Shown one piece after another: positions 1-16,992 of a DNA stretch of 64,000 bases. Source of the stretch: Alphaproteobacteria bacterium (lineage in GTDB: Bacteria; Pseudomonadota; Alphaproteobacteria; CAAGCB01; CAG-977); the NCBI GenBank assembly GCA_017616015.1, contig JAFZYY010000030.1, positions 247,706 through 311,705 of the forward strand, written 5' to 3'. How positions within the stretch are numbered: position 1 is the first letter of the stretch; every line of letters starts with the position of its first letter. The notes under the pieces were generated by a model that made no database searches, was not told where the DNA came from, and saw nothing but the letters and a program-made list of their open reading frames with translations. The position numbers and the translations under genes are program-made.

Positions 1-757
1 CTTCGTGCCACCCTTTCTGCGATTCCGCGAGCGCGTCATAGTAAAGGTCTTTGTCCTTTGCGATTTTGGCTTCAAGAGAAATGTATCTGCCGATATAAAA
101 CCCGTTCCGATACAGAAGAAGCGTCGTCAACAAACGGCTCATTCTTCCGTTTCCGTCATTGAACGGGTGAATGCACAAAAAGTCATGGATAAAGACGGGT
201 ATCGCGATCAACGGTTCAAGTTCCATATTTCCGATGACGCGGTTGTATTCTTCGCATATCCTGTCGAGAGCCTCCGGCGTTTCATAAGGGGCGAGAGGCG
301 TGAACAAAGTTTCAACATGACCGTCGGGATGGGTTGCGCTGATATAGTTCTGGACATTTTTCGTTTGCCCCGCCATCGGGTTGTTCGCATAACTGTATAA
401 GATTTTGTGAAGCTGAAGGATATAATTCCGTGTCACGGGAATGGCGTCAAAGTTCTCATGGATCAGTTTCAACACATCCCTGTATCCGCTGATTTCCTTT
501 TCACTGCGATTTTTAGGCGTTGTCTTTTCCTCGACAAGCTGACGGACACGAGTGCTGGTCGTAACAATGCCCTCGATTGCGTTAGAAGCCTCGGTGCTTT
601 GAACCTTGGCAATTTCCACCAGTTTGTCGAGTTCTTCCGGACGCTGTTTCAGATACAACTCCTGCTTTCCCACTTCCTTATATATGGCGGAAATCAGCCC
701 GAGAAGTTCCGAATCCCATTTTTGTTCCCTGATCGCGGAATAGTTAAAAGCTCTCAT
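1..757 (-). CDS. Fic/DOC family protein, C-terminus cut by window edge
   Basis: Reverse-complement translation from the ATG at 757 is open to position 1: MRAFNYSAIREQKWDSEL...FLCIHPFNDGNGRMSRLLTTLLLY. It contains the canonical Fic motif HPFxDGNGR. The listed + strand ORFs 5-400 and 407-802 are shadows of this gene. Confidence 0.8.
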   Translation of the reverse strand, partial: MRAFNYSAIREQKWDSELLGLISAIYKEVGKQELYLKQRPEELDKLVEIAKVQSTEASNAIEGIVTTSTRVRQLVEEKTTPKNRSEKEISGYRDVLKLIHENFDAIPVTRNYILQLHKILYSYANNPMAGQTKNVQNYISATHPDGHVETLFTPLAPYETPEALDRICEEYNRVIGNMELEPLIAIPVFIHDFLCIHPFNDGNGRMSRLLTTLLLYRNGFYIGRYISLEAKIAKDKDLYYDALAESQKGWHE

Positions 758-987
758 TCCCTTACTCCTACGTTCTTTCCCTTAAATCATACCATAAAAT
801 AAGGGAATAACAAGAAAGTAAGCGAATTTGCATTTTTTCTGCTATTCATGGCTGTTCCCATCGCTTCGGGAACAGTCTATCTGTTCGAAACTAAATGGGG
901 CGTCAGATAAATCATATAATGCAATTGACTCCTGTCATAAAAAAACTTACTCTAGCAAAGGAACTAAAGGGACATAAGAGTTGTTAG

Positions 988-2099
988 ATGATAAAGTTGG
1001 AAGAAAAAGATTCGGATTATATAGAAGGAGAAGAATCCTTAAATGAAAAGGCCATCCAAAATATTAAAGCTAATTATCCTAATATCTCTATAAAGTTTAG
1101 TAGAGACAATTATAGCCTTTACGAACTAAAAAGAAAATTAAATGAAAATAAATTTATAGTTATTGATCCTGAATTTCAAAGAGAAAATGTATGGAGTCAT
1201 AAGCAAAATGCTGAACTAGTTGAATCTATTATGATGGGGATACCAATTCCTATAATATACCTTTTTGAAGATGAAAAAGGTATACGTCAAGTTGTAGACG
1301 GGCGGCAAAGGCTAGCCTGTATTACAAATTTTATGGATAATAAATTTAAGTTGGTTGATTTAAGCATATTAGGCGAATACAATGGATATTATTTTAAAGA
1401 TTTACCAGCTGTACTCCAATCTAAAATAGAAGATTATCAAGTTATAGTTTATACTGTTCAACATCCTACTCCGGAGAAGGTTAAATTTGATATTTTTGAT
1501 AGAGTAAATAGAGGGGGACACAACTCAATAACCAAGAAATGAGGAATGCATTATATCTTGGAAAATCCACAAAGCTGCTAAAAAAATTAGCAGAATCCGA
1601 ATCTTTTATTTCTGCTACTGGTAATGGCGTATCATCGACGAGAATGAAAGACAGGTATATGATTCTCAGGTATCTAGCATTCTATCTATACAGAACAGAA
1701 AAGGTTGATGGATTAGAATATAAAAGTGATATGGATGATTTTCTTGCGAATGTAATGAAAGCCATTAATAATTTTACTGATGAAAAAATAGAAGAATTAG
1801 AAAATATTTTTGCAAAATCTATGAAGCAGTGTCTTGAAGTTATGGGGCCGGATGGATTTCGATTTAATAAGAAAAGTCAGGGCAGTAATCAGCGTCGTCC
1901 TATAAATATGGGGCTTTTTGAAATGTTAGCCTATTTTTTTAGTTTAAATATAGAAGATATTGATAGGCAACTATTAAAGAACAAAATAGAAAATTTAAAA
2001 CGAGACATGGACGATAGAGGTATATTAAGAATAATAGATTCAAATGTTGCAATTAAATATAGATTTGATGCAATTGAAAAATTGCTGGAGAGTATATGA
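988..2099 (+). pseudogene. DUF262 (ParB-like nuclease superfamily) protein, interrupted by a frameshift in a G5 homopolymer (1513-1517)
   Basis: ORF 988-1542 carries the DUF262 N-terminal motifs (IDPEFQRENVW, DGRQRL). ORF 1539-2099 starts MRNALYLG. One extra G in the run at 1513-1517 would give ...RGGTQLNNQEMRNALY, restoring the conserved DUF262 GG..LN.QE.RNA block. So the two ORFs are one gene split by a 1-nt indel. Confidence 0.65.
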
Positions 2100-3241
2100 T
2101 GTTAAAAGAACTAGATATTAAAAATTTTAAGAATATTAAGGAAGAACATTTTGAATTATCTGGCCTGACAATTTTTACAGGAGTTAATTCTTCTGGAAAG
2201 TCATCTGTATTACAAAGTATTTTGCTTTTATCAAAAAAATATTCTCTGCAACAAAACGCCGATTTAAGTCGTTATACTTCATTTTTTTCTAAATTTTCAG
2301 AAGTAAAAAACAAATATATTAAAGAAGATATTATAACAATTGTAGCCATTTCAGAAGAGGATGAAAAATACAATTATAATATTAGTCCACAAAGAATTGA
2401 AGAAGCAGACTATTCAATATTAAAAAAACTTGCTCCTACTATTAAAGAATCTATTTTGACGAAAAAAAATAAACAAAACGATGCTTTTCTCGAATATATA
2501 GAAAGAATAGCAAATATGACAAGAAATATTTTTTCATATGAAGATAATTTATATTATTTATCAGCCAACAGAAACGGTCCTGAAGATATATCCCAAATAA
2601 ATCATGAGAAAAAAGTTGGCATTAATGGCGAATATTTAATAGGTTACTTAGCTCAAAATAAATTAAAAAATGTTGATGTTGCAATTCAAAAATTCAAAGA
2701 TAACGCAACATTAGCATATCAAGTAGGTGAATGGTTAAAAGATATCTTAGAAATAGACATTTCTGCAAATTTAGATATGATTGATGATATGCATGCTAAA
2801 CTAAGCTTTGATATTGAGGGGGTAACAAAATTAAATCCACTAAATGTAGGATCAGGAAATAGTTATTTGCTCAAGTTATTAATTCTTTGCTTAAGTTGTG
2901 TAAAAGGAAATATCGTAATCATAGAAAATCCAGAAATACATCTTCATCCAAAAGCTCAAGCTAAATTAGGGGAGTTCTTTTCTTTTTTAGCAGAAAATGG
3001 GGTACAAATAATTCTTGAAACACACAGTGAACACTTAATCAACAAAGTCCGTTTTCAAGTTAAGAAAAATAAAATATCAAATAAAAAGATTCACATATAT
3101 TATAAAAAATCAATTAAAGATAGTTTTTCAGCAATAGATATAGATGATACGGGGCACTTCGTAGATAAAGAAAACAAAAGAATCCCATTCCCTACAGGTT
3201 TTTTTGATACAAGCTTAGAAAATTTAATGGAAATAGGCTAA
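2096..3241 (+). CDS. ABC-type AAA ATPase (AAA_15/DUF3696-like family)
   Basis: Walker A FTGVNSSGKSS. C-terminal IIENPEIHLHPKAQ...ILETHSEHL is typical of AAA_15/AAA_21 ABC ATPases. ATGA start-stop overlap with the upstream gene. Confidence 0.75.
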   Translation: MMLKELDIKNFKNIKEEHFELSGLTIFTGVNSSGKSSVLQSILLLSKKYSLQQNADLSRYTSFFSKFSEVKNKYIKEDIITIVAISEEDEKYNYNISPQRIEEADYSILKKLAPTIKESILTKKNKQNDAFLEYIERIANMTRNIFSYEDNLYYLSANRNGPEDISQINHEKKVGINGEYLIGYLAQNKLKNVDVAIQKFKDNATLAYQVGEWLKDILEIDISANLDMIDDMHAKLSFDIEGVTKLNPLNVGSGNSYLLKLLILCLSCVKGNIVIIENPEIHLHPKAQAKLGEFFSFLAENGVQIILETHSEHLINKVRFQVKKNKISNKKIHIYYKKSIKDSFSAIDIDDTGHFVDKENKRIPFPTGFFDTSLENLMEIG

Positions 3242-3242
3242 A

Positions 3243-3965
3243 ATGGCATTTTCTTACCTTTTATCAGACGAATTAGCTGAGTTGTACCTTAATTATAAAG
3301 ATGGAAAAAACGTTAATCAAGCCTTGCTGGAGTTATTTTTTTCCTTCTATGAACCAGTACCTTTTATTTCATTGGATCAATTAAATAAATATGGAAGCGA
3401 TAATGTGGAAGCAAGACAAGCTTTAATGGCTAGTTGTTATAGCGCTAAATCAGAAGAACAAGTCTTAGAGGAAACAAAATACAGAATTAAATTAACTACT
3501 GATTGTAATAGATATCCATGTGTCGATATAAACAAAGGGAAACTTAAAAAGGAAATAGTGGCATCATATAAAGCCGGAGAGGTACGGGATGAAACAATAA
3601 AACACCTAAATAATTTATGCAAAAATGCACAAAGTATTGCGATTTATGACAAGTATATGTTTAAATCTAATGATATACAAAAGTCTTCGATTGCACTGTT
3701 TTTTAAAAATATTTTAGACGATCAAAATGCGATTAATATTTTTTATATAAAGCCTGGCAAAGAAAATATTCAAAAGCATCTTACATATCTTAAAAAAATA
3801 AGACAAAATTGCACTTTAAAAAATTCCCCTGATAATAGGTATAAAAATGCTCATGATAGATATATACTGATAGATAAGAGATTAGAGATAATTTTAAGCA
3901 GTGGATTAGAGTATTTGTTTGACATATCAAAAGAAATATCTTTAATATATAGAGAAATCATATGA
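3243..3965 (+). CDS. hypothetical protein, third gene of the DUF262/ATPase module
   Basis: 240-aa ORF starting 2 nt after the ATPase stop, with the same AT-rich composition. No recognisable motif. Confidence 0.55.
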   Translation: MAFSYLLSDELAELYLNYKDGKNVNQALLELFFSFYEPVPFISLDQLNKYGSDNVEARQALMASCYSAKSEEQVLEETKYRIKLTTDCNRYPCVDINKGKLKKEIVASYKAGEVRDETIKHLNNLCKNAQSIAIYDKYMFKSNDIQKSSIALFFKNILDDQNAINIFYIKPGKENIQKHLTYLKKIRQNCTLKNSPDNRYKNAHDRYILIDKRLEIILSSGLEYLFDISKEISLIYREII

Positions 3966-4238
3966 CATTATATCTACGCAACCGTTTTATTATTTTGTTT
4001 TTATGAAGCATAACAAGAAACATTATTTAATAATCTATCAAGCAAGGATAATTTAAAGTGCGATTGTTTAACTGTTAAAACTCATTTAATTTCGTACAGT
4101 CGGGATTGATGTTCCCCTAAAACTGTGTCAAAAAGAAGTAAAGCCATTTATTAAATTACTCGTAAATTTCTTTGATGGCAAGAGCCGGTTTGCGCAACTG
4201 CAAGAGTCTGGCGCAAACTGTCCATCTGTTTTCTGAAC

Positions 4239-4445
4239 ATCGTTGACGAAGATCACGCGGCATTACAGCCAGACTTGTTCTCCCAAAGGAAAGAAGACGA
4301 GAAAGAGAGGAAAATGCAAGAGGCTGTCTTGGCGATCAAGCAAAAATTCGGGAAAAACGCTTTGCTTCGAGGAATGAGCTATACGGACAAAGCAACGGCG
4401 CGTGTGCGAAACAAGTTGATCGGAGGACACAATGGCGGCGAGTAA
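4239..4445 (+). pseudogene. C-terminal remnant of a Y-family (UmuC/DinB-like) DNA polymerase
   Basis: Frame ending TAA at 4443-4445 reads ...NIVDEDHAALQPDLFSQRKEDEKERKMQEAVLAIKQKFGKNALLRGMSYTDKATARVRNKLIGGHNGGE*. The KyGk..lrg.s...RNK.IGGH pattern is the typical Y-family polymerase C-terminal tail. There is no N-terminal or catalytic portion upstream; the frame hits a stop about 25 codons further up. The stop overlaps the start of the next gene. Confidence 0.5.
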
Positions 4446-4737
4446 AGAGGAACGTGCCCGTCAATTTCTGACGTTTAACGCTTTGACCGGGTATTACCAA
4501 ATGATATTGGAAAAACAGCGCGTTTCCGAACCGAAGAAAGAACTTTCGGAAGACGAAGCGGCGGCTTTGTCCGATAAATTAAAGAGCCTCCGGCGGCATG
4601 ACCTTGTATCCGTGACTTTTTACGACAAGGACGCTTATATCACCAAAACGGGAATGATTATGGATATTGATTTCACATTCCAAACGCTGACGATCGTTAA
4701 AACGAAGATACCGTTTCAGGATATTTTGAGGCTTTAA
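4432..4737 (+). CDS. YolD-like protein (UmuD-analogue accessory of Y-family polymerases)
   Basis: 101 aa. Conserved LSEDE...VxVTFYxxxxxxxxTGxIxxIDxxxQxLxI pattern of the YolD-like family. Start overlaps the polymerase-remnant stop. Confidence 0.6.
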   Translation: MAASKEERARQFLTFNALTGYYQMILEKQRVSEPKKELSEDEAAALSDKLKSLRRHDLVSVTFYDKDAYITKTGMIMDIDFTFQTLTIVKTKIPFQDILRL

Positions 4738-5700: not shown

Positions 5701-5925
5701 ATGCACAGAATTTGTCTGTGTTTAGACGCTTTGAATGGAAAATTGAAAAAAGGGCTTGTCGATATGTTGACAGATAATGAACTAAATGAACTGCTTCACG
5801 ACATCATAAATATTGAGCAACGCTATCAAGACTCCTTGATTAACAAACGGAAAGATGAAGTTAGGAAAAAAATAATAGACGGTTATTTGCGACAAAAAGA
5901 AAAAGAGGATGGAGAAAAATTATGA
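5701..5925 (+). CDS. small hypothetical protein, first gene of the module upstream of dnd
   Basis: 74 aa. Its stop overlaps the next gene's ATG (ATGA), which suggests translational coupling. Confidence 0.4.
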   Translation: MHRICLCLDALNGKLKKGLVDMLTDNELNELLHDIINIEQRYQDSLINKRKDEVRKKIIDGYLRQKEKEDGEKL

Positions 5926-7991
5926 AATTATCAGCCCTTTCATTAAATAATTTCAGACAGTTTTACGGAAAGCAAAAAATTGTATTTTCCACTTCGCCTA
6001 AAAGCAAAATAACGTTCGTCCACGCAGAAAATAGTGCGGGGAAAACGACGATTTTGAACGCTGTTTTATGGTGTATGTTCGGGAAAGACTATTGTTCACA
6101 GAATTTTGCTCATCCTGATCAGCTTGTAAATGATAAGGCCTTGGAGGAAGGAACGACGTCTTGTCAGGTAGATGTCGGTTTCAAAACGGATTTTCCCGAT
6201 GAAAACGGTGTTACAGAATATATCATGTCTCGCAGATATAATCAGAAAACAAAAGTTGAAAAAATCCGCCTTTATTTTAAGGATCCTGAAACCCAAGAAA
6301 TGGATTATTACGATGGAGACAATGACATCCAAAAAGCCAGTATACAATATATGATGCAGCGATTGATTCCGCCTGGAGTATTAAAGCAGTTTTTTACAGC
6401 CGGAGAGGCCGCGGAACAAACGGGCATAAACTATACGGCTTTCAAGAAGTCTTTTGAAACCTTGCTTGGTATGGATTACATAAAAAAAGCGAGAAAAGAT
6501 ATATCGGATAACCGAGACAATTTCTGTAAGCAAATCAATATGGGAGAAAGAGAACAGAGGAAGTTTGATGGGCTTCTTAAAGAAAAAAATTCTGACATAA
6601 CGCGTATGGATGAACTTTCTGAGGAAATTAGTAAAAAAACAACAGAAATAGAGGAATGTGATAGAAAGATCAACGAAGCGGATCGCATAATAAGCAGGAA
6701 TGATGAACCTAAAAGAATTTTAGAAGAGCAGAAGAAAAGGGAAAGAGACTTAACTAAAACAGACGCGGAAATTGATGAAAACGAAAAAAACATCAAAAAT
6801 TGGATTTCAAACAACGCGATGTCATTGTTGTTTTCTGCGGAACAATTGCATTCCGTCAATCAATATGTGAATAACGCGGACTCGGAACGTATTACCGTTG
6901 AATATCCGGTCAACAAAAAACTTCTTGAAGCACTTTTGAACAGGGGAATTTGCATCTGCGGAACAAAGATTACTGAAAAAGAAGAAAAGAAATTAAGAGA
7001 AGCTCTTGAGCAGATTGTTCAAGACCCAAAAGAAACGGAAAAAGAAAATAAGAGCGAGCGTTTAAAAACTTTCGTCGTTAGATTGGCGGACAAAGCGGCA
7101 GATGCACAAAATAAAATAAACGAATTGCAGCGAAAAAGAGTGATTTTAAGAAATGAACACGCCGAGATAAGAACGGATATTGAACGTTTGGGAGACATAT
7201 TGGCTAAAAATCAGCCCGAAAACATAACCGCTGCAGAGAATTCCAGGAGAGAACAGCAACGAAAAAGGGCGGTTTACGAGCAAGATAAAGCCAAAGCCAA
7301 GAATGATTTAGAGAATGCGAAGAGAGATTTGGATAGAGTTGAACGGGAGCTACAGCGCCTCCATGTCCCCAATAACTCTAAAGAAGTTGAATACGCCGAT
7401 ATTTGTAGCCGACTTATGCGAAAGTGTGATGATGTGATAGAAAACGAAATTCCGCAAGCAAGAAGAATTGCTGCGGAAAAAATGAATGTTTTTCTTGCGA
7501 ACGTTGGGAATAAAATGACGGTTACATTCAATGACGAAAACGATATGGAAGTGAGAAACGCTTACGGTCGCCCGCAAGCTCCTGGCGGTGCGGAAGCTTC
7601 TTTTATCGCTTTATCGTTTGTCTTAGCTATGACCGAAATTTCAAAAGAAAGAGCGCATAAGAATCAAAAAACCGGAAATAATTTCTTACCTGGGTTGATT
7701 GCTCCGTTTATTTTCGACTCTGTTATGGGAGTTTTTGATGAAACAAACAGAAGTGTTTTCTGGGATTATATTCCAGAGCGATCGGATCAAATGATTCTGC
7801 TTTTATCTTCAACGCAAGGAGGAGAGGAAATAGCAGAAGATCTCAGAAACAAAGGATTGATTGGCAAAGAGTATTATCTGGAAGCGCATGGAAACAATGT
7901 GGATAAAGAAATCAAAAGCCAGATAAAAGGACAAATTAGAGATTTAAAAGTCCGCGACAACGATGTTTTTACCAAAATTAGAGAAATCTAA
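5922..7991 (+). CDS. SMC-like ABC ATPase (DndD/AAA_23-like N-terminus, long coiled coil)
   Basis: 689 aa. Walker A ENSAGKTTILNAVLW at the N-terminus. K/E-rich coiled-coil middle with a CICG motif. C-terminal D-loop region IFDSVMG. Confidence 0.8.
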   Translation: MKLSALSLNNFRQFYGKQKIVFSTSPKSKITFVHAENSAGKTTILNAVLWCMFGKDYCSQNFAHPDQLVNDKALEEGTTSCQVDVGFKTDFPDENGVTEYIMSRRYNQKTKVEKIRLYFKDPETQEMDYYDGDNDIQKASIQYMMQRLIPPGVLKQFFTAGEAAEQTGINYTAFKKSFETLLGMDYIKKARKDISDNRDNFCKQINMGEREQRKFDGLLKEKNSDITRMDELSEEISKKTTEIEECDRKINEADRIISRNDEPKRILEEQKKRERDLTKTDAEIDENEKNIKNWISNNAMSLLFSAEQLHSVNQYVNNADSERITVEYPVNKKLLEALLNRGICICGTKITEKEEKKLREALEQIVQDPKETEKENKSERLKTFVVRLADKAADAQNKINELQRKRVILRNEHAEIRTDIERLGDILAKNQPENITAAENSRREQQRKRAVYEQDKAKAKNDLENAKRDLDRVERELQRLHVPNNSKEVEYADICSRLMRKCDDVIENEIPQARRIAAEKMNVFLANVGNKMTVTFNDENDMEVRNAYGRPQAPGGAEASFIALSFVLAMTEISKERAHKNQKTGNNFLPGLIAPFIFDSVMGVFDETNRSVFWDYIPERSDQMILLLSSTQGGEEIAEDLRNKGLIGKEYYLEAHGNNVDKEIKSQIKGQIRDLKVRDNDVFTKIREI

Positions 7992-8004
7992 GAAGGGGGG
8001 ATAA

Positions 8005-8502
8005 ATGTCAGCAGATTTGGAAATGAAGCGTTCCGTCGCCATTGATGAGGAACACGAGAATACTTTAAGGGCCATCACACAAAACGACAACCCGAAGGCT
8101 CCTTTCGAACATTTTTACTCCGCTATAACATTTGCTGCTGTATTGGGATTTAGCCAGGGGCATACTCCGAAACCCAATTCAAAACACATAAAAATGGATG
8201 CAATAAAACCGGAGTATTTTTCAAGATGCGATGGTGGATATATAGCCCTTCTCATCGCGTTATTGCATACAAAAAGTTATGACAAAATCCTCAACGAGAT
8301 ACCAGAAGATTCTGACTATGTTTCTATTTTTACCGGTTATGCCAATGCGGGATTGGAGATTATTGAAGACTGGAGAACACAGTATAACGGTGACATAATG
8401 AACACGACGGAAATAATCTTACAGGGGCTTCAGAATGTTCTTGGGAGCAATCGCGCAAACAAAAAGGCCGCTGACGCTGGCGAAGTAACTGTGAGACTGT
8501 GA
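8005..8502 (+). CDS. hypothetical protein
   Basis: 165 aa. Sits between the ATPase and the PLD/helicase gene, overlapping the latter's start by 4 nt. Confidence 0.55.
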   Translation: MSADLEMKRSVAIDEEHENTLRAITQNDNPKAPFEHFYSAITFAAVLGFSQGHTPKPNSKHIKMDAIKPEYFSRCDGGYIALLIALLHTKSYDKILNEIPEDSDYVSIFTGYANAGLEIIEDWRTQYNGDIMNTTEIILQGLQNVLGSNRANKKAADAGEVTVRL

Positions 8503-10844
8503 TGAGCCTTTCAGAAATAGACATTAAACCGTTTTATTCAAGTTCATCATCCAATGTGTTAGAGGATTTCTATATCCCTTGTCTTTCAAATGCAGTTCGA
8601 TATGACAGGGCGGTTGGCTATTTTTCGTCCGCCGTTTTTTCCCTGATGGCGAGAGGAATCGCTCCTTTAGTAAAAAACGGAGGAAAAATACGTCTGATCA
8701 TAGGAACAACGCTAACGAATGACGAATTTGCCGCTATTGAAAATGCATTAAAGGAAAACAACGAAAATATTTTCTTTGATCGTCTTGACGAAGCCTTGTT
8801 AAATGAATTTTGTTACCATCCGGACAATGAAAATCTGAACAAGCTTTTCCAAAGCCATTTAGATATGTTTTCTTGGTTGGTTTCAAGGAAATATCTTGAA
8901 ATTAAAGTGGCATTCAGGGATATAGGTATCTATCATGAGAAAATCGGTGTTATAGAAGATGACGACGGAGAAAAAGTCGTTTTTTCCGGTTCAAACAATG
9001 AGACTCCTGCGGCAATTCTAACAGAGTTTAATTATGAGGCGTTCGCCGTATGGTGTTCCTGGAAAAAAGAACATTTAGAACATTTTGCTGTTGAAAGTCA
9101 GGAATTCGAGAAATTATGGAATAACGAAGTGGAAAACGTCTATGTCCTTCCTCTTTCAAATGAAAATCATTTTTTGAAAACAAAGGAACTTCTGAAAAAA
9201 AACTCTGCCCACATTGACGAAATACAGTCTTTTGAAAAATTTATTTCTGATGAAAAAAATATTATTGAAGAAATAAAAAAGATTAAAACCAGAAGGAATT
9301 TTATTCTTTCAGAAATAAGAAAGAAAATTGTGGAAGAGGATATTTTTGAAAGAAACAAAAAAAGATTTCAACCCAAAATTCCTGATTTATGGGTTCAACA
9401 AATCAGACCCCTGCAACGCGAAGCCGTCATAGCGTGGGATTCTTCCGAGTATTTAGACGGTTTCCAGGATGTCTACTTAGAAGAATATAACCGTTCTCCT
9501 GAAGCAAAAAGACGGCACTGTGGGATTTTGCAACTGGCAACGGGAGCCGGAAAAACGCGAATAGCCATTATGGCGGCAATCAAAACGTTTGAAGCCTTAA
9601 AGGAGCAAAGTGATAACGCTAAACTGGTAACGATTTTTGCCGTTCCATATCAAGGTCTGGCAGATCAGTGGTCTAAGCTGTTAGATGAGTGTAATATGTT
9701 CCCCGTCCGATGCTGGGATTCAAGGGCATCTTGGTCGGAGGACTTAGAGAGAGCTCGTTCAGGGTTTAAGAATGGCTATTTAAATTTTTTATCAATAGTT
9801 GTTGTCAACAAAACATTATCCTCTGAAGGTTTTCAAAAGTTTTTGAGTGATATTTCACCGAATGAATTGTTTTTTGTCGGAGACGAGTGCCATCATCACG
9901 CAAATATGGCGGATAAACTTCCGAATGCGCACTTTAAGATGGGATTATCAGCGACGCCATTTGAAGATTATCCCTCGCTAAAAGACAATGATTTAATTAA
10001 ATATTACGGAGACGTTTGTTATGTCTATGACTTATCACAAGCCATTAAGGATGGTATTTTGGCAAAATATCAATATCACGTTTTGCCTGTTGAACTTTCG
10101 AACGAGAAAGACGGTGATAAATTAAGCGAAGAAGAAGAATTCAAAAAGATTTCCAGCAATATAGCCGCTATCCTTATCAAGAATAACAATAATTTTTCAG
10201 ATCCCGATCTTCTTCCCCTTTTTCTAAAACGTAGCAGACTTTTAGGGAGTGCTAAAAACAAAATAAAGAAGCTCAATGAGGCTTTGGACCGGTGGTGTCC
10301 TGAGCCCAAAAAGTATTCGTTATTTTTCTGCGGAGAAGGAGTTGATCCCTATTTTAATGAAGAGGAGAATCCTGAACGCAACGATAATCTAATTACGACT
10401 ATTACAGCACTCCTGAACGATCGAGGGTGGATTCCCGCTCAATATACAGCAAAAAACAAAGCGGACAGGACCGCTAAACTGAATGGATTTAAGAACGGAG
10501 CCTACAATGCTCTTCTGTCTATGAAATGCTTGGATGAAGGTGTTGATCTTCCGGCCTGCAAACAAGCATTTCTTTTGGCAAGTGCCAATAAATCGCGCCA
10601 ATACATTCAAAGGCGGGGACGCGTTCTGAGAAAACAGGGGAAAAATGATACTTCCGAAGCCCTTATCATAGATTTTTATGTGTATATAAAACCGAAAGAA
10701 GTTCAATCCGAATCGGAAAAGGGCTTAATATCCCGCGAGTTAAAACGAATTGTCGAGTTTGCGCGAGACGCTGAAAATGAAGACGCTTTGGATGATATTC
10801 AAGATGTATTGGAACTTTACGGTATAGATGTAAAAATCAGTTGA
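8499..10844 (+). CDS. PLD-like (HKD) nuclease domain fused to an SF2 DEAH helicase
   Basis: 781 aa. N-terminus YDRAVGYFSSAVFSL...IYHEKIGVIED (HKD-like). Helicase motifs I ATGAGKTRIA, II DECHHH, III SATP, VI QRRGRVLR. Confidence 0.8.
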   Translation: MMSLSEIDIKPFYSSSSSNVLEDFYIPCLSNAVRYDRAVGYFSSAVFSLMARGIAPLVKNGGKIRLIIGTTLTNDEFAAIENALKENNENIFFDRLDEALLNEFCYHPDNENLNKLFQSHLDMFSWLVSRKYLEIKVAFRDIGIYHEKIGVIEDDDGEKVVFSGSNNETPAAILTEFNYEAFAVWCSWKKEHLEHFAVESQEFEKLWNNEVENVYVLPLSNENHFLKTKELLKKNSAHIDEIQSFEKFISDEKNIIEEIKKIKTRRNFILSEIRKKIVEEDIFERNKKRFQPKIPDLWVQQIRPLQREAVIAWDSSEYLDGFQDVYLEEYNRSPEAKRRHCGILQLATGAGKTRIAIMAAIKTFEALKEQSDNAKLVTIFAVPYQGLADQWSKLLDECNMFPVRCWDSRASWSEDLERARSGFKNGYLNFLSIVVVNKTLSSEGFQKFLSDISPNELFFVGDECHHHANMADKLPNAHFKMGLSATPFEDYPSLKDNDLIKYYGDVCYVYDLSQAIKDGILAKYQYHVLPVELSNEKDGDKLSEEEEFKKISSNIAAILIKNNNNFSDPDLLPLFLKRSRLLGSAKNKIKKLNEALDRWCPEPKKYSLFFCGEGVDPYFNEEENPERNDNLITTITALLNDRGWIPAQYTAKNKADRTAKLNGFKNGAYNALLSMKCLDEGVDLPACKQAFLLASANKSRQYIQRRGRVLRKQGKNDTSEALIIDFYVYIKPKEVQSESEKGLISRELKRIVEFARDAENEDALDDIQDVLELYGIDVKIS

Positions 10845-10860
10845 CAGCAGATCGTTTTGG

Positions 10861-10888
10861 ATATACGTAAGTATATACTTGCGTATAT
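10861..10888. promoter_or_regulatory. 28-bp near-perfect palindrome directly upstream of dndB; candidate operator
   Basis: atatacgtaagtatatacttgcgtatat pairs at 13 of 14 positions. A TTGACA hexamer lies at 10841-10846 and GGAG at 10888-10891. Confidence 0.45.
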
Positions 10889-10899
10889 CGGAGTCCGCG

Positions 10900-11976
10900 A
10901 TGTTTTCTTATAGATTTCCTGTTGTTCGAGGGGTTCAAGCCAACAAAGAGTATTATATTGGTATGCTCCCTTTGGAGTATTTATCTAAACTTTTTCCCGA
11001 TGATCCCGATGTCGTCGCCCCGGAGTTCCGCGCCCAAAGACGCGTGAATGAACAAAGAATCCCCACGATCAGAGATTACATCTTAAAAAACAGGACTTCT
11101 TATGTCTTTTCCGCATTATCCGCTTCGATTGACGGTCATTTCAACTTTATCCCCTCCTCAAGTTCCCCGGATTTAGGGATTCTTGAAGTCGAAATGAACG
11201 CCGTGTTTCTTATCAATGACGGTCAACATCGCAAGGCGTCGCTTCAAGCGGCTTTAGAGGAAGACCCGTCCCTTAAAACAGAAACGATTTCCATCGTTTT
11301 CTTTAAGGACGAGGGGCTTCAACGGAGCCAACAGATGTTTACCGACCTGAACAAACACGCCGTCAAGACATCGAACTCCATCGCTGAACTTTATGATAAT
11401 CGGGACAGAATTGCGGTCATAAATCGAACTGTTGTTTCATCAATAGATTTTCTAAACACCTATACGGACAAGGAACGGGATAATCTTGGGAAGTTTTCAT
11501 CAAATTTGTTCACTTTGAACACGTTTTATCTGGCGACAAAACGCATTTTGAAAGAAAGCGGCGGCGATGATGAAAAAGATATAGAGTTTTTATGCCGTTT
11601 TTGGGAAACCGTTATTAAAAACATAGAACCGTGGCAAGAACTTCAAAAGCGGGAAATATCAAAGGTCGATTTACGCGAGAACTACATCATAACGCAAGGC
11701 GTGGTTATACAGGCTTTGGGCGTGATCGGAAAATACTGCTACGATCATAGAAAAGAAGAAAATCCTCAAACGGACTTGACACGGTTAAATCAAATTGATT
11801 GGCACAGAACGGCAAAGGATTGGAAATACCGCGTCGTTCGCGCTGACGGCAAAATCCTCACAAGCGAAAAAGCCATTCAACTTGCCGCGATCCAGATCAA
11901 AAAGATAATTAGGATTTCTCTTTCCCCGGAAGAAAAAAATCTTGAAGCACGTTTCAATTCAGAAAAGAGAAAGTAA
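10900..11976 (+). CDS. dndB: DNA sulfur modification protein DndB (DGQHR-domain)
   Basis: FLINDGQHRKASL motif. ATG at 10900 preceded by GGAG. The track ORF begins at a TTG at 10879. Confidence 0.8.
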   Translation: MFSYRFPVVRGVQANKEYYIGMLPLEYLSKLFPDDPDVVAPEFRAQRRVNEQRIPTIRDYILKNRTSYVFSALSASIDGHFNFIPSSSSPDLGILEVEMNAVFLINDGQHRKASLQAALEEDPSLKTETISIVFFKDEGLQRSQQMFTDLNKHAVKTSNSIAELYDNRDRIAVINRTVVSSIDFLNTYTDKERDNLGKFSSNLFTLNTFYLATKRILKESGGDDEKDIEFLCRFWETVIKNIEPWQELQKREISKVDLRENYIITQGVVIQALGVIGKYCYDHRKEENPQTDLTRLNQIDWHRTAKDWKYRVVRADGKILTSEKAIQLAAIQIKKIIRISLSPEEKNLEARFNSEKRK

Positions 11977-11985
11977 GGAGATACA

Positions 11986-13524
11986 ATGTCCGAAAAATGT
12001 GAAGTATGCGAAGCCGCAAAAAAAGAAATCTCCATTACAAAGGAATCTGTCGAAGGACTTATGGAAACCGTCCGACGGCTGTATTTAGCTGATGATATTC
12101 CGTGGGTAATCGGGTATTCGGGAGGAAAAGACAGCACGGCGACGCTTCAACTGGTTTGGCTCGCTCTTAAAGATTTGCCGAAATACAAATTCAGAAAGCA
12201 GATTCACGTTATCAATACGGACACTCTTGTTGAATCTCCGGTCGTATCCCAATGGGTTAAACGGTCGCTTCAAATTTTAGATGAAGCCGCACAGGAACAA
12301 GGATTGCCTTTTGTTACTCATCGCCTGACTCCTGAAATGGACAACACTTATTGGGTAAATTTCATCGGGCGCGGCTATCCGTTCCCGAGGAAACAACTCC
12401 GGTGGTGCACGGATCGACTGAAAATTCAGCCCGTAAACAACTTTGTGAAGAACAAAATCGCCGAACACGGCGAGATCATTCTGGTGATCGGAACCCGAAA
12501 AGCCGAAAGCGCAAACCGCGCTAAAACAATGGCGTATTATGAAAAATTGCGTGTTCGGGAATTATTGAGTCCGAGCCAAACAATGGCAAACGAGCTTGTC
12601 TTTACACCCCTTGAAGATTGGAATGACAACGATGTTTGGGTGTTTTTAATGCAATATGCAAATCCGTGGGGATACTCAAACAAGGAATTGCTGACCCTGT
12701 ATCGTGGAGCGACCGCAGACGGAGAATGCCCGATGATGGTTGAAAAGGGATTGCCAAGCTGCGGTAAAAGCCGTTTCGGGTGTTGGGTTTGCACAATGGT
12801 CGAAAAAGACAAATCAATGGAAGCTATGATCGCAAACGATGAAGAAAAAGCGTGGTTAGCCCCGTTGCTTGAATTTAGAAACAAATTCGGAGATGAAGCA
12901 AAAGATCGCGAACGCCGGTCTTTCAGAAAAATGACCGGAGCATTGTTCGGTTCTTATAAACAACTCCATCACGGCCCTTATAAAAAAGAAATCCGTGAGG
13001 AATGGTTAAGAAATTTGCTTTCCATTCAAAAAGAAATCAATGAAAACGCGCCGGAGGAGTTTAAGAACTTGGAATTGATTTCTTTGCCTGAATTAAGAAA
13101 TATCCGACGGATTTGGGTTTTTGAAAAACACGAATTTGACGATGCGCTTCCGAGAATCTATGAAGAAGTGATCGGAAAGCCCTTTGACGATCCTGAATGG
13201 ACTGCTCCCGAAGATTTCCGCAAGAATGAGTGGGATATTTTGAAAGACGTAGTGAACGAACTCTATCCCGATGAGGAATTGGCGTTTGAAATGGCATATA
13301 GCTTGATTGATACTGAAAATCAGTCCAAAAGTCTGAACAAAAGACGCGGTGTTCTTCAAGGTTTGGAAGACTGTATAAAAAAGAACTTTTATAAAAACGA
13401 AGAAGACGCGACAAATTACTATATGAACAAAATGGTTCGCAAGAAAGAGCTTGGTGGAAAGTATAACGAAAAAGCTCTTGACGACACTTATGATGAAGCG
13501 GACGCAGAGGAAGAAGAACAATGA
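11986..13524 (+). CDS. dndC: DndC (PAPS-reductase-like PP-loop ATP pyrophosphatase)
   Basis: PP-loop GYSGGKDST. C-terminal cysteine cluster CPMMVEKGLPSCGKSRFGCWVC. 512 aa. Confidence 0.9.
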   Translation: MSEKCEVCEAAKKEISITKESVEGLMETVRRLYLADDIPWVIGYSGGKDSTATLQLVWLALKDLPKYKFRKQIHVINTDTLVESPVVSQWVKRSLQILDEAAQEQGLPFVTHRLTPEMDNTYWVNFIGRGYPFPRKQLRWCTDRLKIQPVNNFVKNKIAEHGEIILVIGTRKAESANRAKTMAYYEKLRVRELLSPSQTMANELVFTPLEDWNDNDVWVFLMQYANPWGYSNKELLTLYRGATADGECPMMVEKGLPSCGKSRFGCWVCTMVEKDKSMEAMIANDEEKAWLAPLLEFRNKFGDEAKDRERRSFRKMTGALFGSYKQLHHGPYKKEIREEWLRNLLSIQKEINENAPEEFKNLELISLPELRNIRRIWVFEKHEFDDALPRIYEEVIGKPFDDPEWTAPEDFRKNEWDILKDVVNELYPDEELAFEMAYSLIDTENQSKSLNKRRGVLQGLEDCIKKNFYKNEEDATNYYMNKMVRKKELGGKYNEKALDDTYDEADAEEEEQ

Positions 13525-15455
13525 TCATCAAAAAACTTAAACTTTATAATTTTGGTATCTATGCTTACCTTAATATGTTCGTTTTCAAAGGCGCAGCACC
13601 GGTTGTTTTGATCGGCGGTATGAACGGACGGGGAAAAACAACGTTCTTGGAAGCTGTCCTGCTCGGCCTTTACGGTTCAAACTCGTTCGCGTTTCAGGAA
13701 ACTAATTTCAAATACAAAGATTATTTGGCGTCATATACCAACAAGACCGACGCCTCGCAGATGGCGTATATCGAAATAGAGTTTTCTATGGAGAAATATG
13801 ATTCGGAAACTTATACAATCCATAGGGAATGGAGCAAAAAGACAAAGTTTCAAGAGCATATTTGGGTAAAGAAAAACGGGGAAGACAACGCTTTTCTAAC
13901 CGAAAATTGGGCGATGTTTATTGAAAACATTTTACCAAGCGCATTGTCTAAATTTTTCTTCTTTGACGGTGAAAAAATAGCGGCGTTAGCAGAGAACAAC
14001 ACCTCGGAACAGATCAAAGAATCAATAAAAGCGATGTTGGGGGTTTCCATTCTTGATACATTGGGTAACGATCTAAACAAGATTATCTCTAAAATATCGA
14101 AATCCAAAAAAGGCAACAGCGAATTAGACCGACTTGAAACATTAAAGAATGAGAAAGAGAAAGCAATCGCTGATTTGCAGGAAGCCGATACAAAAATAGC
14201 GGATAAAAACGCGGCAATCATCAAACTGAAAGCTAAACTTGAGAACAAGAAGAAAGATTATACGTTAAAAGGCGGCGACATCGTTTCACAAAAGCACGAT
14301 CTTATTGCTAAAAGGGCAGAAAGCATTTCCGCTTTGAATTTGTGCAATGAAAGTCTTGCTGAATTGGCTTCAAGCGAAATGCCTTTGAAAATGGTGTCAT
14401 TCCTTTTGAACGATATAGAAGTTCAAAGCGAACAAGAGTTTGAACAAAAGAAATATGAAATAACACTTGAGAAAATAAAGGAATTACAGAGTTCTTTTTC
14501 CGACAAGGAACATACGGACATCAGTTCTTTTATTTCGTTCGTTCAGGATAAAGTGGCAAAGGAAAAGAAAGACACCCTTTACAATTTATCGAACGAAAAT
14601 CTATTCAAACTTCACGATTTAATAAAAAACAGAATAGACGCTTCTATTGATAAAGCGAAAAAAATAACGAAAGAAAGAGAAAAACACAAAAACTCTATCA
14701 ACGAAATTGATAACTATCTTTCCGTAGATATAGATGATGAAGTTTTGAATAAACTCTTTAAGGAAATAAAAACACTTGAAAATACAATTTCAGAGGAAGA
14801 AATATCTCTTAAGTTTTTGGAAGAACAACGTAAAACATTAAACGGAATTGCTACAAAAGCCGAATCTGAATTTAGCAAAGCGGCGGAGGAGATTTTGTCG
14901 TCAATAGAAACGGACGAAGAAGAAGGACGAAGCCTGAAATACTTATATATGGCTCAAAAAATATTTGTGGAATATCAGAAAAAGCTCCAAGCACGAAAGA
15001 CTGAAATTCTGGCAAAGGAAATGACGAATTGTTTTACACAGCTCGCGAACAAAAAAAGTCTTGTTTCAAAGATAACAATGGATCCTGTTTCTCTTGATCT
15101 CCACTATTTTGACAGTTCAGAAAACGAAATTATAAAAAAACGGCTATCTTCCGGGGAAAAACAGTTGATGATTATATCTTTGTTATGGGCTTTAGCGTTA
15201 TGCTCAAAAAAGAAACTTCCGGTTATTATTGATACTCCGCTGTCCCGACTTGATTCCGCCCATCGCGGTTCTCTCATCAAAACCTATTTCCCAAACGCGA
15301 GCGATCAAACAATCATTCTTTCGACCGATACGGAAGTTGATAAACGGTATTACAAAATGATGCGTCCGTTCGTTGGCGATGAATACACTCTGGAATATAA
15401 CGATACAAGCAAACGGACGGTAGTGCGCCGCGGCTATTTTGGTTGGGGAGAATGA
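13521..15455 (+). CDS. dndD: DndD (SMC-like ATPase)
   Basis: 644 aa. Walker A IGGMNGRGKTT, long coiled coil, C-terminal LSSGEKQ signature and Walker B VIIDTP. ATGA overlap with dndC. Confidence 0.9.
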   Translation: MIIKKLKLYNFGIYAYLNMFVFKGAAPVVLIGGMNGRGKTTFLEAVLLGLYGSNSFAFQETNFKYKDYLASYTNKTDASQMAYIEIEFSMEKYDSETYTIHREWSKKTKFQEHIWVKKNGEDNAFLTENWAMFIENILPSALSKFFFFDGEKIAALAENNTSEQIKESIKAMLGVSILDTLGNDLNKIISKISKSKKGNSELDRLETLKNEKEKAIADLQEADTKIADKNAAIIKLKAKLENKKKDYTLKGGDIVSQKHDLIAKRAESISALNLCNESLAELASSEMPLKMVSFLLNDIEVQSEQEFEQKKYEITLEKIKELQSSFSDKEHTDISSFISFVQDKVAKEKKDTLYNLSNENLFKLHDLIKNRIDASIDKAKKITKEREKHKNSINEIDNYLSVDIDDEVLNKLFKEIKTLENTISEEEISLKFLEEQRKTLNGIATKAESEFSKAAEEILSSIETDEEEGRSLKYLYMAQKIFVEYQKKLQARKTEILAKEMTNCFTQLANKKSLVSKITMDPVSLDLHYFDSSENEIIKKRLSSGEKQLMIISLLWALALCSKKKLPVIIDTPLSRLDSAHRGSLIKTYFPNASDQTIILSTDTEVDKRYYKMMRPFVGDEYTLEYNDTSKRTVVRRGYFGWGE

Positions 15456-15844
15456 CAATGTTTATCAAACAAATTAGGCTTTCCGAAACTTCCAAAGAGC
15501 GTTTGAGCAGATTAAAAGGAAAAACGGGAATCAAGAATTGGAATATCCTTTGCCGTTGGGCTTTATGCTACTCTTTAAGCGAACAAACCCTTCCGACCGA
15601 TGTCCCGGTAAATACGGATAGCAATGTAGAGATGTCCTGGTTTACATTCGGCGGTGAATACAGCGATATTTACTCGGCCTTATTGGTTGCCTGGTGTCAA
15701 AGAATGAAATTATCAACAGATGAAGAAACGCTTGAAAAGTATTTCAAACTTCATTTAGAGCGCGGGATCGCATATCTTTCGGGCACGAACCTGATTAAAA
15801 GCATTGACGATTTGTTGAAATTGGCGATCGAGGTCAAAAAATGA
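15452..15844 (+). CDS. dndE: DndE
   Basis: MTMFIKQIRLSETSKERLSRLKGKTGIKNWNILCRWAL matches the DndE N-terminal pattern. ATG at 15452 overlaps the dndD stop (ATGA), with GGGGAG upstream. The track start at 15443 is a TTG. Confidence 0.75.
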   Translation: MTMFIKQIRLSETSKERLSRLKGKTGIKNWNILCRWALCYSLSEQTLPTDVPVNTDSNVEMSWFTFGGEYSDIYSALLVAWCQRMKLSTDEETLEKYFKLHLERGIAYLSGTNLIKSIDDLLKLAIEVKK

Positions 15845-16992
15845 GCGTTTATCTGGATTATAACGCCTCTGCTCCCATAGATGAGCGCGTGTTGGCGGTT
15901 ATGATTGACGTGTATAAAAACGCGATTGGAAACGCCGACAGTCGAACACATAATTTCGGCGAAAATGCCCGAAAAATCGTTGAAAACGCACGGGAACAGG
16001 TCGCTTCTTTGTTAGGCGTTGACAAAGGAGAAGTCTTTTTTACAAGCGGGTCAACAGAGAGCAACAATATTGCAATTCAAGGATTAAAGGAATATGCGCT
16101 TCAGACTGGGAAAAAACATATCATCACAACGGCGATAGAGCATAAATCCGTATTGGAAACCGCCAAATATATGCAACGGAACGGCTTTACTGTTGATTTT
16201 ATTTCTCCCGAACCAAGCGGACGGATAAACGAACAAGCTGTTTTGGATAAAATCGGAGAAAAAACTCTACTCGTTTCCGTTATGCACGCGAACAATGAAA
16301 CCGGAATCATTCAACCAGTCAAGGAAATAGGCGATTTTTTAACGGATAAGGACATTTTATTCCATATCGACGCCACGCAAACTTGCGGAAAATTAGTGCC
16401 CGAAATCAAGGGATTGAAATATAATATGCTTTCTTTAAGCGCGCATAAATTGAGCGGGCCTCAAGGTGTTGGTACTTTAATTCTGCGAAAGAAAAAATAC
16501 AAGCTGCCTCCGGTGAAGCAGATTATCTTCGGAGGACAACAAGAACGGGGTATCAGACCGGGAACGATACCGGTCGCGTTGGTAGCCGGATTAGGAAGAG
16601 CTTGCCAATTAGCTGAAATTGAATATCAAGAGAACATTCAAAACTGCCGCGAAATCAAAAAAGACATCCTTGAATTGCTGAACAATTCAAAATTAAAAAT
16701 TGAAGTAAACGGTGAACCGGATTGTTGTATGCCAAACACATTGAATATCAGCATTAAAGGCGTTGAATCCGAGGCTCTTATGCTTTCAACAAAAGATTTT
16801 TGTGGTATATCAAACGGATCGGCCTGCACTTCGTCCGACTACAAACCGAGTTATGTTCTTTCCAGTATGAATTTGGATAATGAACGAATATCCCAAGCCG
16901 TTCGTTTAAGTTGGGGTGGAAAATCCGTCAAAGAAAAGATATTGACGGACTTATCCCTTTTGATAAAACGTGCGGAAGAACTCGTTTTTTAA
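15841..16992 (+). CDS. dndA: DndA/IscS-type cysteine desulfurase
   Basis: 383 aa class-V aminotransferase. PLP-lysine motif SAHKLSGPQGVG. C-terminal active-site Cys region SNGSACTS. ATGA overlap with dndE. Confidence 0.85.
   Translation: MSVYLDYNASAPIDERVLAVMIDVYKNAIGNADSRTHNFGENARKIVENAREQVASLLGVDKGEVFFTSGSTESNNIAIQGLKEYALQTGKKHIITTAIEHKSVLETAKYMQRNGFTVDFISPEPSGRINEQAVLDKIGEKTLLVSVMHANNETGIIQPVKEIGDFLTDKDILFHIDATQTCGKLVPEIKGLKYNMLSLSAHKLSGPQGVGTLILRKKKYKLPPVKQIIFGGQQERGIRPGTIPVALVAGLGRACQLAEIEYQENIQNCREIKKDILELLNNSKLKIEVNGEPDCCMPNTLNISIKGVESEALMLSTKDFCGISNGSACTSSDYKPSYVLSSMNLDNERISQAVRLSWGGKSVKEKILTDLSLLIKRAEELVF

Follow-up and report, generated by a model that had tools for sequence, protein, structure and literature searches.

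Menshen is a known anti-phage system (Millman et al., 2022, as cited in Li et al., 2025, NAR, PMC12065111). Its mechanism was inferred from structure predictions by Li et al. (2025), and experiments have shown only that the Solibacillus silvestris system protects against phage (PMC12065111). According to that model, NsnA, which joins a ParB-DUF262 NTPase to a ParBDB DNA-binding domain, would sense invading DNA; a tetramer of the ABC-ATPase NsnB would hold NsnC through the N-terminal inPIN domain of NsnC and pass on the signal through ATP binding or hydrolysis; and NsnC would then cut nucleic acid, in the locus described here by a PLD-like (HDR-motif) nuclease domain of the PB-PLD1 type. GmrSD, SspE, DndB and PD-T4-2 have, like NsnA, a helical DNA-binding domain behind a ParB-like DUF262 NTPase module. 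PARIS (AriAB), Septu (PtuAB) and Gabija (GajAB) likewise pair an ABC/OLD-type ATPase with a nuclease, and a nuclease held by its ATPase is what the published NsnB-NsnC model predicts.

Assignment of the cassette

The window (the whole 64-kb stretch of DNA that was analyzed) contains a Type I Menshen cassette, nsnA-nsnB-nsnC, which is an ordinary copy of the known system (Table 1). The assignment rests on full-length PADLOC matches for all three proteins, on the diagnostic motifs of each, and on the same gene order in the nearest relatives. The first-pass annotation had read the three genes (DUF262, ABC ATPase and one more) as a defence cassette, and had tentatively pointed to Menshen-like systems; both ideas were borne out when the PADLOC search returned NsnA, NsnB and NsnC.

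Table 1. Coordinates of features in the window, and the nearest intact loci.
Feature	Position	Strand	Evidence or remark
nsnA 5' fragment (ORF1, 184 aa)	988..1542	+	ParB-DUF262 domain
DUF262 motif I, FQRENVW	1174-1194		nsnA ORF1
DUF262 motif II, DGRQR	1297-1311		nsnA ORF1
DUF262 motif III, FDRVN	1495-1509		nsnA ORF1
GGGGG run	1513-1517
Frameshift site GGGGGA	1513..1518	+	DNA alignment with L005 and L009; in silico repair
nsnA 3' fragment (ParBDB / NsnA-C domain)	1519..2099	+	ORF2 called from 1539 (1539..2099, 186 aa)
nsnB, ABC-type ATPase (381 aa)	2096..3241	+	PADLOC NsnB; Pfam AAA_21, AAA_15
NsnB Walker A, GVNSSGKS	2180-2203
NsnB GSG signature	2846-2863
NsnB Walker B, IVIIEN	2912-2929
NsnB H-loop, ETHSEH	3017-3034
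nsnC, predicted effector (240 aa)	3243..3965	+	PADLOC NsnC; C-terminal PLD-like PB-PLD1 domain
HDR motif of NsnC PLD-like domain	3852-3860
Transferred Menshen cassette	974..3969	+	nucleotide homology 82% to L005, nearest intact Menshen locus (blastn)
Y-family DNA polymerase gene, 3' remnant (~69 codons)	4236..4445	+	tblastn vs plasmids
yolD-like gene	4432-4737		start overlapped by the polymerase remnant
L005	ERZ28613628 scaffold_10639		NsnA P0001, 86% aa
L009/L016	MAG RGIG4908 'Alphaproteobacteria bacterium', roe deer rumen		NsnA P0002, 75% aa

With its frame repaired, NsnA matched the PADLOC NsnA profile at 1.2e-108 (residues 9-370 on profile positions 21-382 of 385) and Pfam GmrSD_N at 8.3e-24, and its three motifs follow the published definitions QRxxxW, DGxQR and FxxxN (Li et al., 2025, PMC12065111). 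GmrSD_N was its only Pfam match; the DUF1524 (HNH-type) nuclease fusion that marks GmrSD and SspE was absent. The two open reading frames were also searched singly: ORF1 covered profile positions 21-188 of 385 (7.5e-55) and ORF2 positions 195-382 of 385 (1.4e-44). As these segments abut on the profile, a single frameshift within one gene is indicated. The repaired protein thus has the ParB-DUF262 domain followed by ParBDB in the first gene, with no extra N-terminal domain, as in Menshen; the window encodes it as two polypeptides (184 + 186 aa) instead of one.

Directly downstream lies the NsnB-type ABC ATPase, which matched PADLOC NsnB at 1.7e-85 (residues 2-379 on profile 1-341/345), Pfam AAA_21 at 1e-25 and AAA_15 at 6.8e-23. 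It carries the variants EN for DE and GxG for SGG that are found in the NsnB family and in published Menshen NsnB (PMC12065111). In the Menshen model NsnC would dock on a C-terminal DUF3696 helix of NsnB; Pfam DUF3696 was not among the matches at E <= 0.1, and the NsnB profile aligns up to residue 379/381. Matches to the AriA, PtuA and GajA profiles (1e-12 to 1e-25) scored far below NsnB.

The third gene, previously listed as unknown, encodes NsnC with a PLD-like nuclease domain, so that an effector domain stands at the C-terminus of the third, downstream gene product. The model of this C-terminal part matched MITD1, NucT and PLD nucleases, as published for PB-PLD1. Residues 1-113 were mostly at pLDDT < 50 (AF2 model from an alignment of only 6 sequences) and gave no fold match that could be interpreted, and the N-terminal region is presumed to be the inPIN domain. 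NsnC of the PB-PLD1 type formed 6 sequence clusters among 5.8 billion proteins, and the locus is a further example of this rare type.

Likeness to Type I Menshen extends to the overlapping or abutting genes in the order nsnA-nsnB-nsnC, to the PLD/MIT_C-like C-terminus of NsnC with its HDR, and to the location in a defence island. The validated S. silvestris system differs in having a one-piece NsnA, where the window nsnA is interrupted by a 1-nt frameshift, and a BECR RNase domain in NsnC where the window protein has a PLD domain. Set against GmrSD, SspE, DndB and PD-T4-2, the DUF262 protein of the window lacks a fused DUF1524/HNH nuclease, and its partner genes encode an ABC ATPase and, separately, an effector; the match of repaired NsnA to PADLOC PD-T4-2_A (2.9e-37) was far below that to NsnA. 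PARIS, Septu and Gabija differ in turn, as the window has a separate DUF262 sensor gene, and its effector combines inPIN (presumed) with PLD where theirs are Toprim or HNH.

Gene layout, neighborhood and origin

The 4-nt overlaps and the AT-richness noted at first sight were confirmed: neighboring ORFs are joined by ATGA at 1539-1542 and 2096-2099, and GC over ~800-4100 was 0.25-0.32, against 0.44-0.48 in both flanks. The spacing of nsnB and nsnC, given earlier as 2 nt, is a single base (3242). Counts in a promoter and terminator scan were at shuffle level.

The cassette reached its place in a rumen bacterium's defence island by horizontal transfer. Homology of the window to L005 in blastn was confined to the cassette, whose GC is 0.28 against 0.43 in the remaining window; among the relatives, the adjoining gene is for a serine recombinase or a tyrosine integrase; and the right edge carries a Y-family polymerase gene in truncated form. 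This remnant showed 47-51% identity (E 2e-9 to 4e-11) in tblastn to plasmid features annotated 'Y-family DNA polymerase / DNA polymerase IV / UvrX' or 'YolD-like', has in-frame stop codons upstream, had no match in a Pfam search, and marks the right-hand edge of the insertion or replacement. Terminal repeats and att-like sites sought around the cassette yielded only short AT-rich chance matches.

Next to the cassette, in the same defence island, lies a Pbe/Dnd phosphorothioation system; the MAG comes from rumen and is labelled 'Alphaproteobacteria bacterium'. Menshen neighbors reported by Li et al. differ from this, being BREX, Type I and III R-M systems and methylases (PMC12065111).

The nearest intact loci, L005 and L009/L016, have the same three genes in the same order (373 / 383-384 / 239-246 aa), the same low GC (0.27-0.29) and the same GGGGG at the RGG codons, and L009/L016 also comes from a ruminant gut sample. 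Their contexts differ from that of the window, with a large serine recombinase, or a tyrosine integrase and DNA methylases, adjoining. In the protein search, the closest intact NsnA allele among the matches listed was that at 86% identity.

The break in nsnA

The first-pass annotation had placed the frame break in the G5 run as a change of run length. The run and a 1-nt frameshift are there; a length change is not supported, G5 being equal in the intact relatives. L005 and L009 (84% and 74% nucleotide identity) read G5 and then AA, whereas the window has one A. Around the site, intact L005 has AGAGGGGGAACACAA and intact L009 AGAGGGGGAACGCAA, against AGAGGGGGACACAA in the window; with GGGGGAAC both relatives are in frame. 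Since the nearest intact relatives share the G5 and have AA after it, the base missing here would most simply, and most likely, be one A of that AA. Deriving GGGGGA from GGGGGAA is an argument from parsimony, and, with the allele 16% diverged from L005, GGGGGGACA is also a possible ancestral reading. One base inserted at the G run fused ORF1 and ORF2 into a 370-aa protein reading ...FDRVNRGGTQLNNQEMRNALY. An added G and an added A gave the identical protein, so the earlier proposal that one G restores the DUF262 block is valid.

The frameshift splits NsnA between the DUF262 and ParBDB domains. The last 7 codons of ORF1 (HNSITKK) are out of frame and stand in place of T178-E184, by which T178, L180, N181, Q183 and E184, invariant in a 29-sequence alignment, are removed. 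On account of this split and of the five replaced residues, the sensor is most likely dead in this copy. The ORF2 start at 1539 corresponds to an ancestral internal Met codon (GAAATGAG also occurs in intact relatives), and its upstream sequence CAATAACCAAGAAATG contains no Shine-Dalgarno sequence, in contrast to nsnB, which has GGAG. NsnA was in one piece in 120/120 homologues among the matches listed (317-491 aa) and matched as one segment in 80/80 genome loci. With nsnA split here and in one piece in all of these homologues and loci, the locus is Menshen by descent and probably not a working one.

Neither nsnB nor nsnC carries a lesion. Compared with L005, dN/dS was 0.075 and 0.085 for the two halves of nsnA and 0.098 for nsnB; at ~0.08, no relaxed selection on the halves was seen, and the lesion is therefore recent or an artefact.

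When ORF1, NsnB, YolD and the PbeC-like protein were looked up by exact match, all contigs found came from one sample and were 100% identical to the window (SRR12529210 / SAMN15830090 / ERZ27256937, the sole sample with this allele). The base sequence was identical in three assemblies (a k141_ contig from an ENA assembly, a Logan contig and the XIEF21-1 ENA scaffold). With one sample behind them all, they do not count as independent evidence, and the allele may reflect an error in the consensus or a mixed population. One assembly of the sample breaks inside the cassette, at window positions 1698 and 3873. A pattern scan of JGI metagenomes, with 0-3 bases allowed after the G run, returned no alternative-length allele.

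Weighing of alternative explanations

We consider it fairly likely that nsnA was very recently inactivated, or that only the assembly consensus lacks the base, and that the gene is neither phase-variable nor naturally two-piece. An artefact taken by itself, in which the organism's nsnA is intact (GGGGGAACA or GGGGGGACA) and the base was dropped from the consensus beside the G run in a low-coverage AT-rich stretch, is rather unlikely. Both nsnA halves have the low dN/dS of intact genes with no second lesion, the allele comes from a single sample, and the assembly breaks noted above are compatible with thin coverage. Against this, three different assemblies agree base for base, albeit all from that one sample, and elsewhere the window contains long, uninterrupted ORFs of up to 1048 aa, as judged by ORF length alone. 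Consensus indels of Illumina data at a 5-nt run are also rare, which counts against a dropped base.

The contingency switch suggested at first, by which slipped-strand mispairing in the G run would toggle nsnA ON and OFF and let the population hedge defence against its cost, was dropped as improbable. Its appeal is that the break lies beside a homopolymer, that a single added G restores the frame, and that defence genes, e.g. R-M systems, are known targets of phase variation. A tract of G5 is, however, shorter than typical contingency tracts, and it has the same length in the intact relatives, the difference being A or AA after the run; tract length thus does not differ between ON and OFF alleles. 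Nor is the tract kept across related loci: at the RGG codons of 62 intact homologous loci the run was 2 nt in 45, 3-4 nt in 10 and 5-8 nt in 7, all in frame including those with G6-G8, the run being a consequence of which codons encode Gly-Gly. Alternative-length alleles were absent from the protein database (among the matches listed) as well as from the JGI metagenomes. The alignment of relatives and the 62-locus survey together led to rejection of the G run as a phase-variation tract.

That the cassette functions as encoded is highly improbable, whether by -1 frameshifting at A-GGG-GGA, by a two-piece sensor made through ATGA reinitiation, or by NsnB-NsnC acting alone like a PARIS/Septu-type ATPase-nuclease pair. 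ORF2 does stand at -1 with respect to ORF1, and a tRNA-Gly paired with GGA could shift to GGG, but the site has no canonical X XXY YYZ heptamer (its first base is A), and folding of the downstream sequence is nothing out of the ordinary (z = -2.5), giving only a small weak hairpin that starts ~14 nt away. No relative has the frameshift, be it among the 120 listed homologues or the 80 genome loci. A programmed -1 ribosomal frameshift was accordingly rejected. As to a naturally split sensor, the ATGA overlap favors translational coupling and would allow some reinitiation, so that both fragments might be made, and all three DUF262 motifs fall in ORF1 and the whole ParBDB domain in ORF2; such a two-piece NsnA would nevertheless be without the five invariant residues, and ORF2 without a ribosome-binding site. 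For NsnB-NsnC alone, the published models predict binding of NsnB4 to NsnC2 and none of NsnA to NsnB or NsnC, but the nsnA-nsnB-nsnC triad was 'almost always' kept in 1997 systems. It is very doubtful that a low-level -1 slip or ATGA reinitiation could supply a small, tunable amount of sensor, or that NsnB-NsnC(PLD) stays active without NsnA.

Implications

In GenBank the 5' half of nsnA is entered as MBO4521387.1 ('DUF262 domain-containing protein') and the 3' half as MBO4521388.1 ('hypothetical protein'). These are to be read as one disrupted Menshen nsnA, with little import beyond annotation. The locus also illustrates that a Menshen cassette can lie beside a Pbe/Dnd phosphorothioation system. 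Were NsnB-NsnC(PLD) active without NsnA, the DUF262 sensor would be dispensable or a brake in Menshen. If the lesion is real, nature has here provided an nsnA knock-out in which nsnB and nsnC are intact, and the native and repaired pair would bear on whether the DUF262 sensor is needed or restrains the effector.

Identification of the cassette

The ORF and GC scan reproduced the ORF boundaries, 4-nt overlaps and AT-richness given in the first-pass annotation. ATGA stop/start overlaps link ORF1/ORF2 and ORF2/ORF3, ORF3 and ORF4 are separated by one base, and GC was 0.25-0.32 at about 800-4100 vs. 0.44-0.48 on both flanks. ORF1 covered positions 21-188 and ORF2 positions 195-382 of the PADLOC NsnA profile (385 positions), and one base added at GGGGG (1513-1517; the cassette has just one other G/C run of 5 nt or longer) fused them into a 370-aa protein reading ...FDRVNRGGTQLNNQEMRNALY. 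Therefore, ORF1 and ORF2 are a single gene with a single frameshift, not two genes. In the GenBank entry of the locus (MAG 'Alphaproteobacteria bacterium', locus tags J5787_), the halves at 988-2099 are annotated as two proteins, MBO4521387.1 and MBO4521388.1.

A PADLOC run matched all three Menshen families end to end (repaired NsnA, 1.2e-108; ORF3 to NsnB, 1.7e-85; ORF4 to NsnC, 7.8e-51), and runner-up families were much weaker (PD-T4-2_A 2.9e-37; HEC-03B, AriA and GajA at 1e-30 or weaker). These full-length matches assign the triad to the Menshen system by sequence similarity, as the first-pass annotation had tentatively suggested ('Menshen-like'). Its DUF262 and ABC-ATPase calls agreed with Pfam (repaired NsnA, GmrSD_N (DUF262); NsnB, AAA_21 and AAA_15), while the third gene, 'unknown' there, is matched by NsnC. 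Menshen was systematically studied at 1997 loci (Li et al., 2025, PMC12065111). The NsnA motifs QRxxxW, DGxQR and FxxxN defined in that study (PMC12065111) are FQRENVW, DGRQR and FDRVN here, all within ORF1. For NsnB, Walker A GxxxxGKS, Walker B with EN replacing DE, and GxG replacing SGG (PMC12065111) correspond to GVNSSGKS, IVIIEN and GSG, plus an H-loop. NsnA carries no additional N-terminal domain, which makes this a Type I Menshen.

Coordinates of the cassette and neighboring features
Feature	Position	Strand	Size	Remarks
Fic/DOC family gene	2-757	-		3' end past the window's left edge; Pfam Fic 1e-16
ORF1 (nsnA 5' part)	988-1542	+	184 aa	
ORF2 (nsnA 3' part)	1539-2099	+	186 aa	
ORF3 (nsnB)	2096-3241	+	381 aa	
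ORF4 (nsnC)	3243-3965	+	240 aa	
Y-family DNA polymerase 3' remnant	4236-4445		69 codons	Stop codons upstream
PbeC-like SMC/DndD-type ATPase	5922-7991			
165-aa protein	8005-8502		165 aa	Pfam PF27807 'DNA_S_mod_dnd_assoc_4'
PbeA	8499-10844			PLD plus helicase
DndB	10879-11976			
DndC	11986-13524			
DndD	13521-15455			
DndE			128 aa	Called in L096
DndA/SspA-like cysteine desulfurase	15841-16992			

The NsnC effector

Fifteen NsnC effector families have been described, among them 'PB-PLD1', which resembles MIT_C and carries a conserved HDR motif (PMC12065111). Pfam gave a sub-threshold MIT_C (PLD-like) match to NsnC, and H204, D205 and R206 were invariant in the alignment of NsnC with its six relatives. 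The structure was predicted from the alignment of these only six database relatives; pLDDT was 63-92 for residues 111-240 (10-residue block means) but <50 for most of residues 1-113, where the inPIN fold is presumed. The catalytic module is predicted to be a PLD-type HDR phosphodiesterase, not a BECR RNase. This NsnC type is rare: a search of 5.8 billion proteins (E ≤ 1e-5) yielded just 6 clusters, at 59-100% identity, which fits the NsnC hyper-polymorphism reported for Menshen.

Nature of the frameshift

Among the best 120 of 2661 matches, the nearest NsnA relatives were intact 373-aa proteins with 86% (P0001) and 75% (P0002) amino acid identity, from loci L005 and L009, which both keep the nsnA-nsnB-nsnC order. 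DNA alignment gave AGA GGG GGA ACA CAA in L005, AGA GGG GGA ACG CAA in L009 and AGA GGG GGA CAC AA in the window. The first-pass annotation had correctly located the GGGGG and its one-base repair; the indel it placed within the G-run is not supported, as the run is 5 nt in all three and the difference is A vs. AA after it. Loss of one A, not G-run slippage, is the simplest history, with a GGGGGG-ACA ancestor a formally possible alternative. The site was readable in 62 of 80 loci retrieved from GTDB species representatives. RVNRGGT was in frame in all 62 (RVNRSGT in two), G7 and G8 copies included. In 45 of these loci the longest G-run measured 2 nt; it was 3-4 nt in another 10 and 5-8 nt in the other 7. 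Mostly 2 nt, variable and always in frame, the run is an accident of Gly codon choice rather than a maintained tract. With the same G5 in intact relatives, this removed the basis for the phase variation that the first-pass annotation had considered, and we regard that reading as very unlikely.

Homologues were all 317-491 aa (120/120 matches listed, the best 120 of 2661 at E ≤ 1e-20) and NsnA matched as one segment in 80/80 genome loci, against a naturally two-piece NsnA. The break falls in the family's most conserved block and replaces T178-E184 exactly by HNSITKK; T178, L180, N181, Q183 and E184 were invariant across 29 aligned NsnA sequences. The ORF2 ATG corresponds to an internal Met codon of the ancestral gene (...QEMRNALY), and the overlapping TGA is also present, out of frame, in intact relatives, so the tidy ATGA junction is coincidental. 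No Shine-Dalgarno was found upstream of ORF2, whereas nsnB has GGAG; a functional start of its own for ORF2, raised in the first-pass annotation, thus found no support. A -1 ribosomal slip would put ORF2 back in frame, but A GGG GGA departs from the canonical heptamer, RNA folding downstream was unremarkable (z = -2.5) and no relative shares the split. A functional arrangement as encoded is very improbable. The one-piece rule, lost invariant residues, missing Shine-Dalgarno and poor slip site indicate that the NsnA sensor is most likely non-functional as encoded.

Compared with L005, dN/dS was 0.075 and 0.085 for the N- and C-terminal halves of nsnA, 0.098 for nsnB and 0.243 for nsnC (dS about 0.8-1.0). 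A second lesion was absent, and both nsnB and nsnC were intact. The frameshift is therefore either very recent or not real. The window was 100% identical to ENA contig k141_1912915 (319 kb), a Logan contig and an ENA XIEF21-1 scaffold, and these three agreeing assemblies are all from one sample (SRR12529210 / SAMN15830090), to which further exact sequence look-ups also led. The allele, in either state, was found in no other sample by protein search and in no JGI metagenome by pattern scan. XIEF21-1 scaffolds break inside the cassette (L004 ends at 1698, L015 starts at 3873, leaving 1699-3872 unassembled there), which may point to thin coverage of this AT-rich insert or to heterogeneity among strains. 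We lean towards a real, recent inactivation of nsnA and consider a consensus error less likely. Separately, the tyrosine integrase gene beside a relative's Menshen encodes 199 aa in several samples (L009 9020-9619), whereas one sample has it split into 88 + 111 aa (L010 9020-9618). Over 13 kb these two loci differ by only 4 mismatches and 1 gap, and the split is a further single-base frameshift in these rumen assemblies.

Genomic context

Nucleotide homology to L005 was confined to 974-3969 (82%); the mobile unit is the three genes alone. Cassette GC was 0.27-0.29 in all three hosts, lower than the flanks, and the relatives' cassettes adjoin a large serine recombinase or tyrosine integrase, and DNA methylases. 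No flanking repeats were found around the cassette. An AT-rich non-coding tail (3970-4140) without homology to L005 follows nsnC. The cassette is flanked by the Fic/DOC gene, which is transcribed divergently from it, and by the polymerase remnant; past the Fic/DOC gene and outside the window, the full contig continues leftwards with a ferritin gene and a small HTH_3 gene. Among the matches listed, the polymerase remnant had 47-51% identity to the C-terminal ends of DNA pol IV / UvrX from Bacillota plasmids, and it overlaps the intact yolD-like gene that follows it (4236-4737 together). The cassette stands where the polymerase 5' part is missing, and its gain thus went with loss of most of that gene. 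A second defense system lies directly downstream (5922-16992), with genes that make up a Pbe/Dnd phosphorothioation modification-restriction cluster. Five IMG/VR viral contigs (L098-L102) encode full-length NsnA homologues (39-43% identity), so some Menshen cassettes may ride on phages or prophages.

Proposed mechanism

Phage protection by Menshen was shown experimentally for the S. silvestris system only (cited in PMC12065111), and the mechanism was derived from AlphaFold models and analogy with SspE/GmrSD, Gabija, Septu and PARIS (Li et al., PMC12065111). In that model, NsnA would sense foreign DNA via ParB-DUF262 NTPase and ParBDB domains, two C-terminal helices of the NsnB tetramer would clamp the NsnC inPIN domain, ATP would be used by NsnB for NsnC activation or release, and NsnC would degrade nucleic acid. 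In this variant, cutting would be by the PLD-type HDR module instead of a BECR RNase. Both the system and its subtype have thus been described before, and the singleton 1-nt lesion in this copy is of uncertain reality; with its sensor split, Menshen is probably off here.
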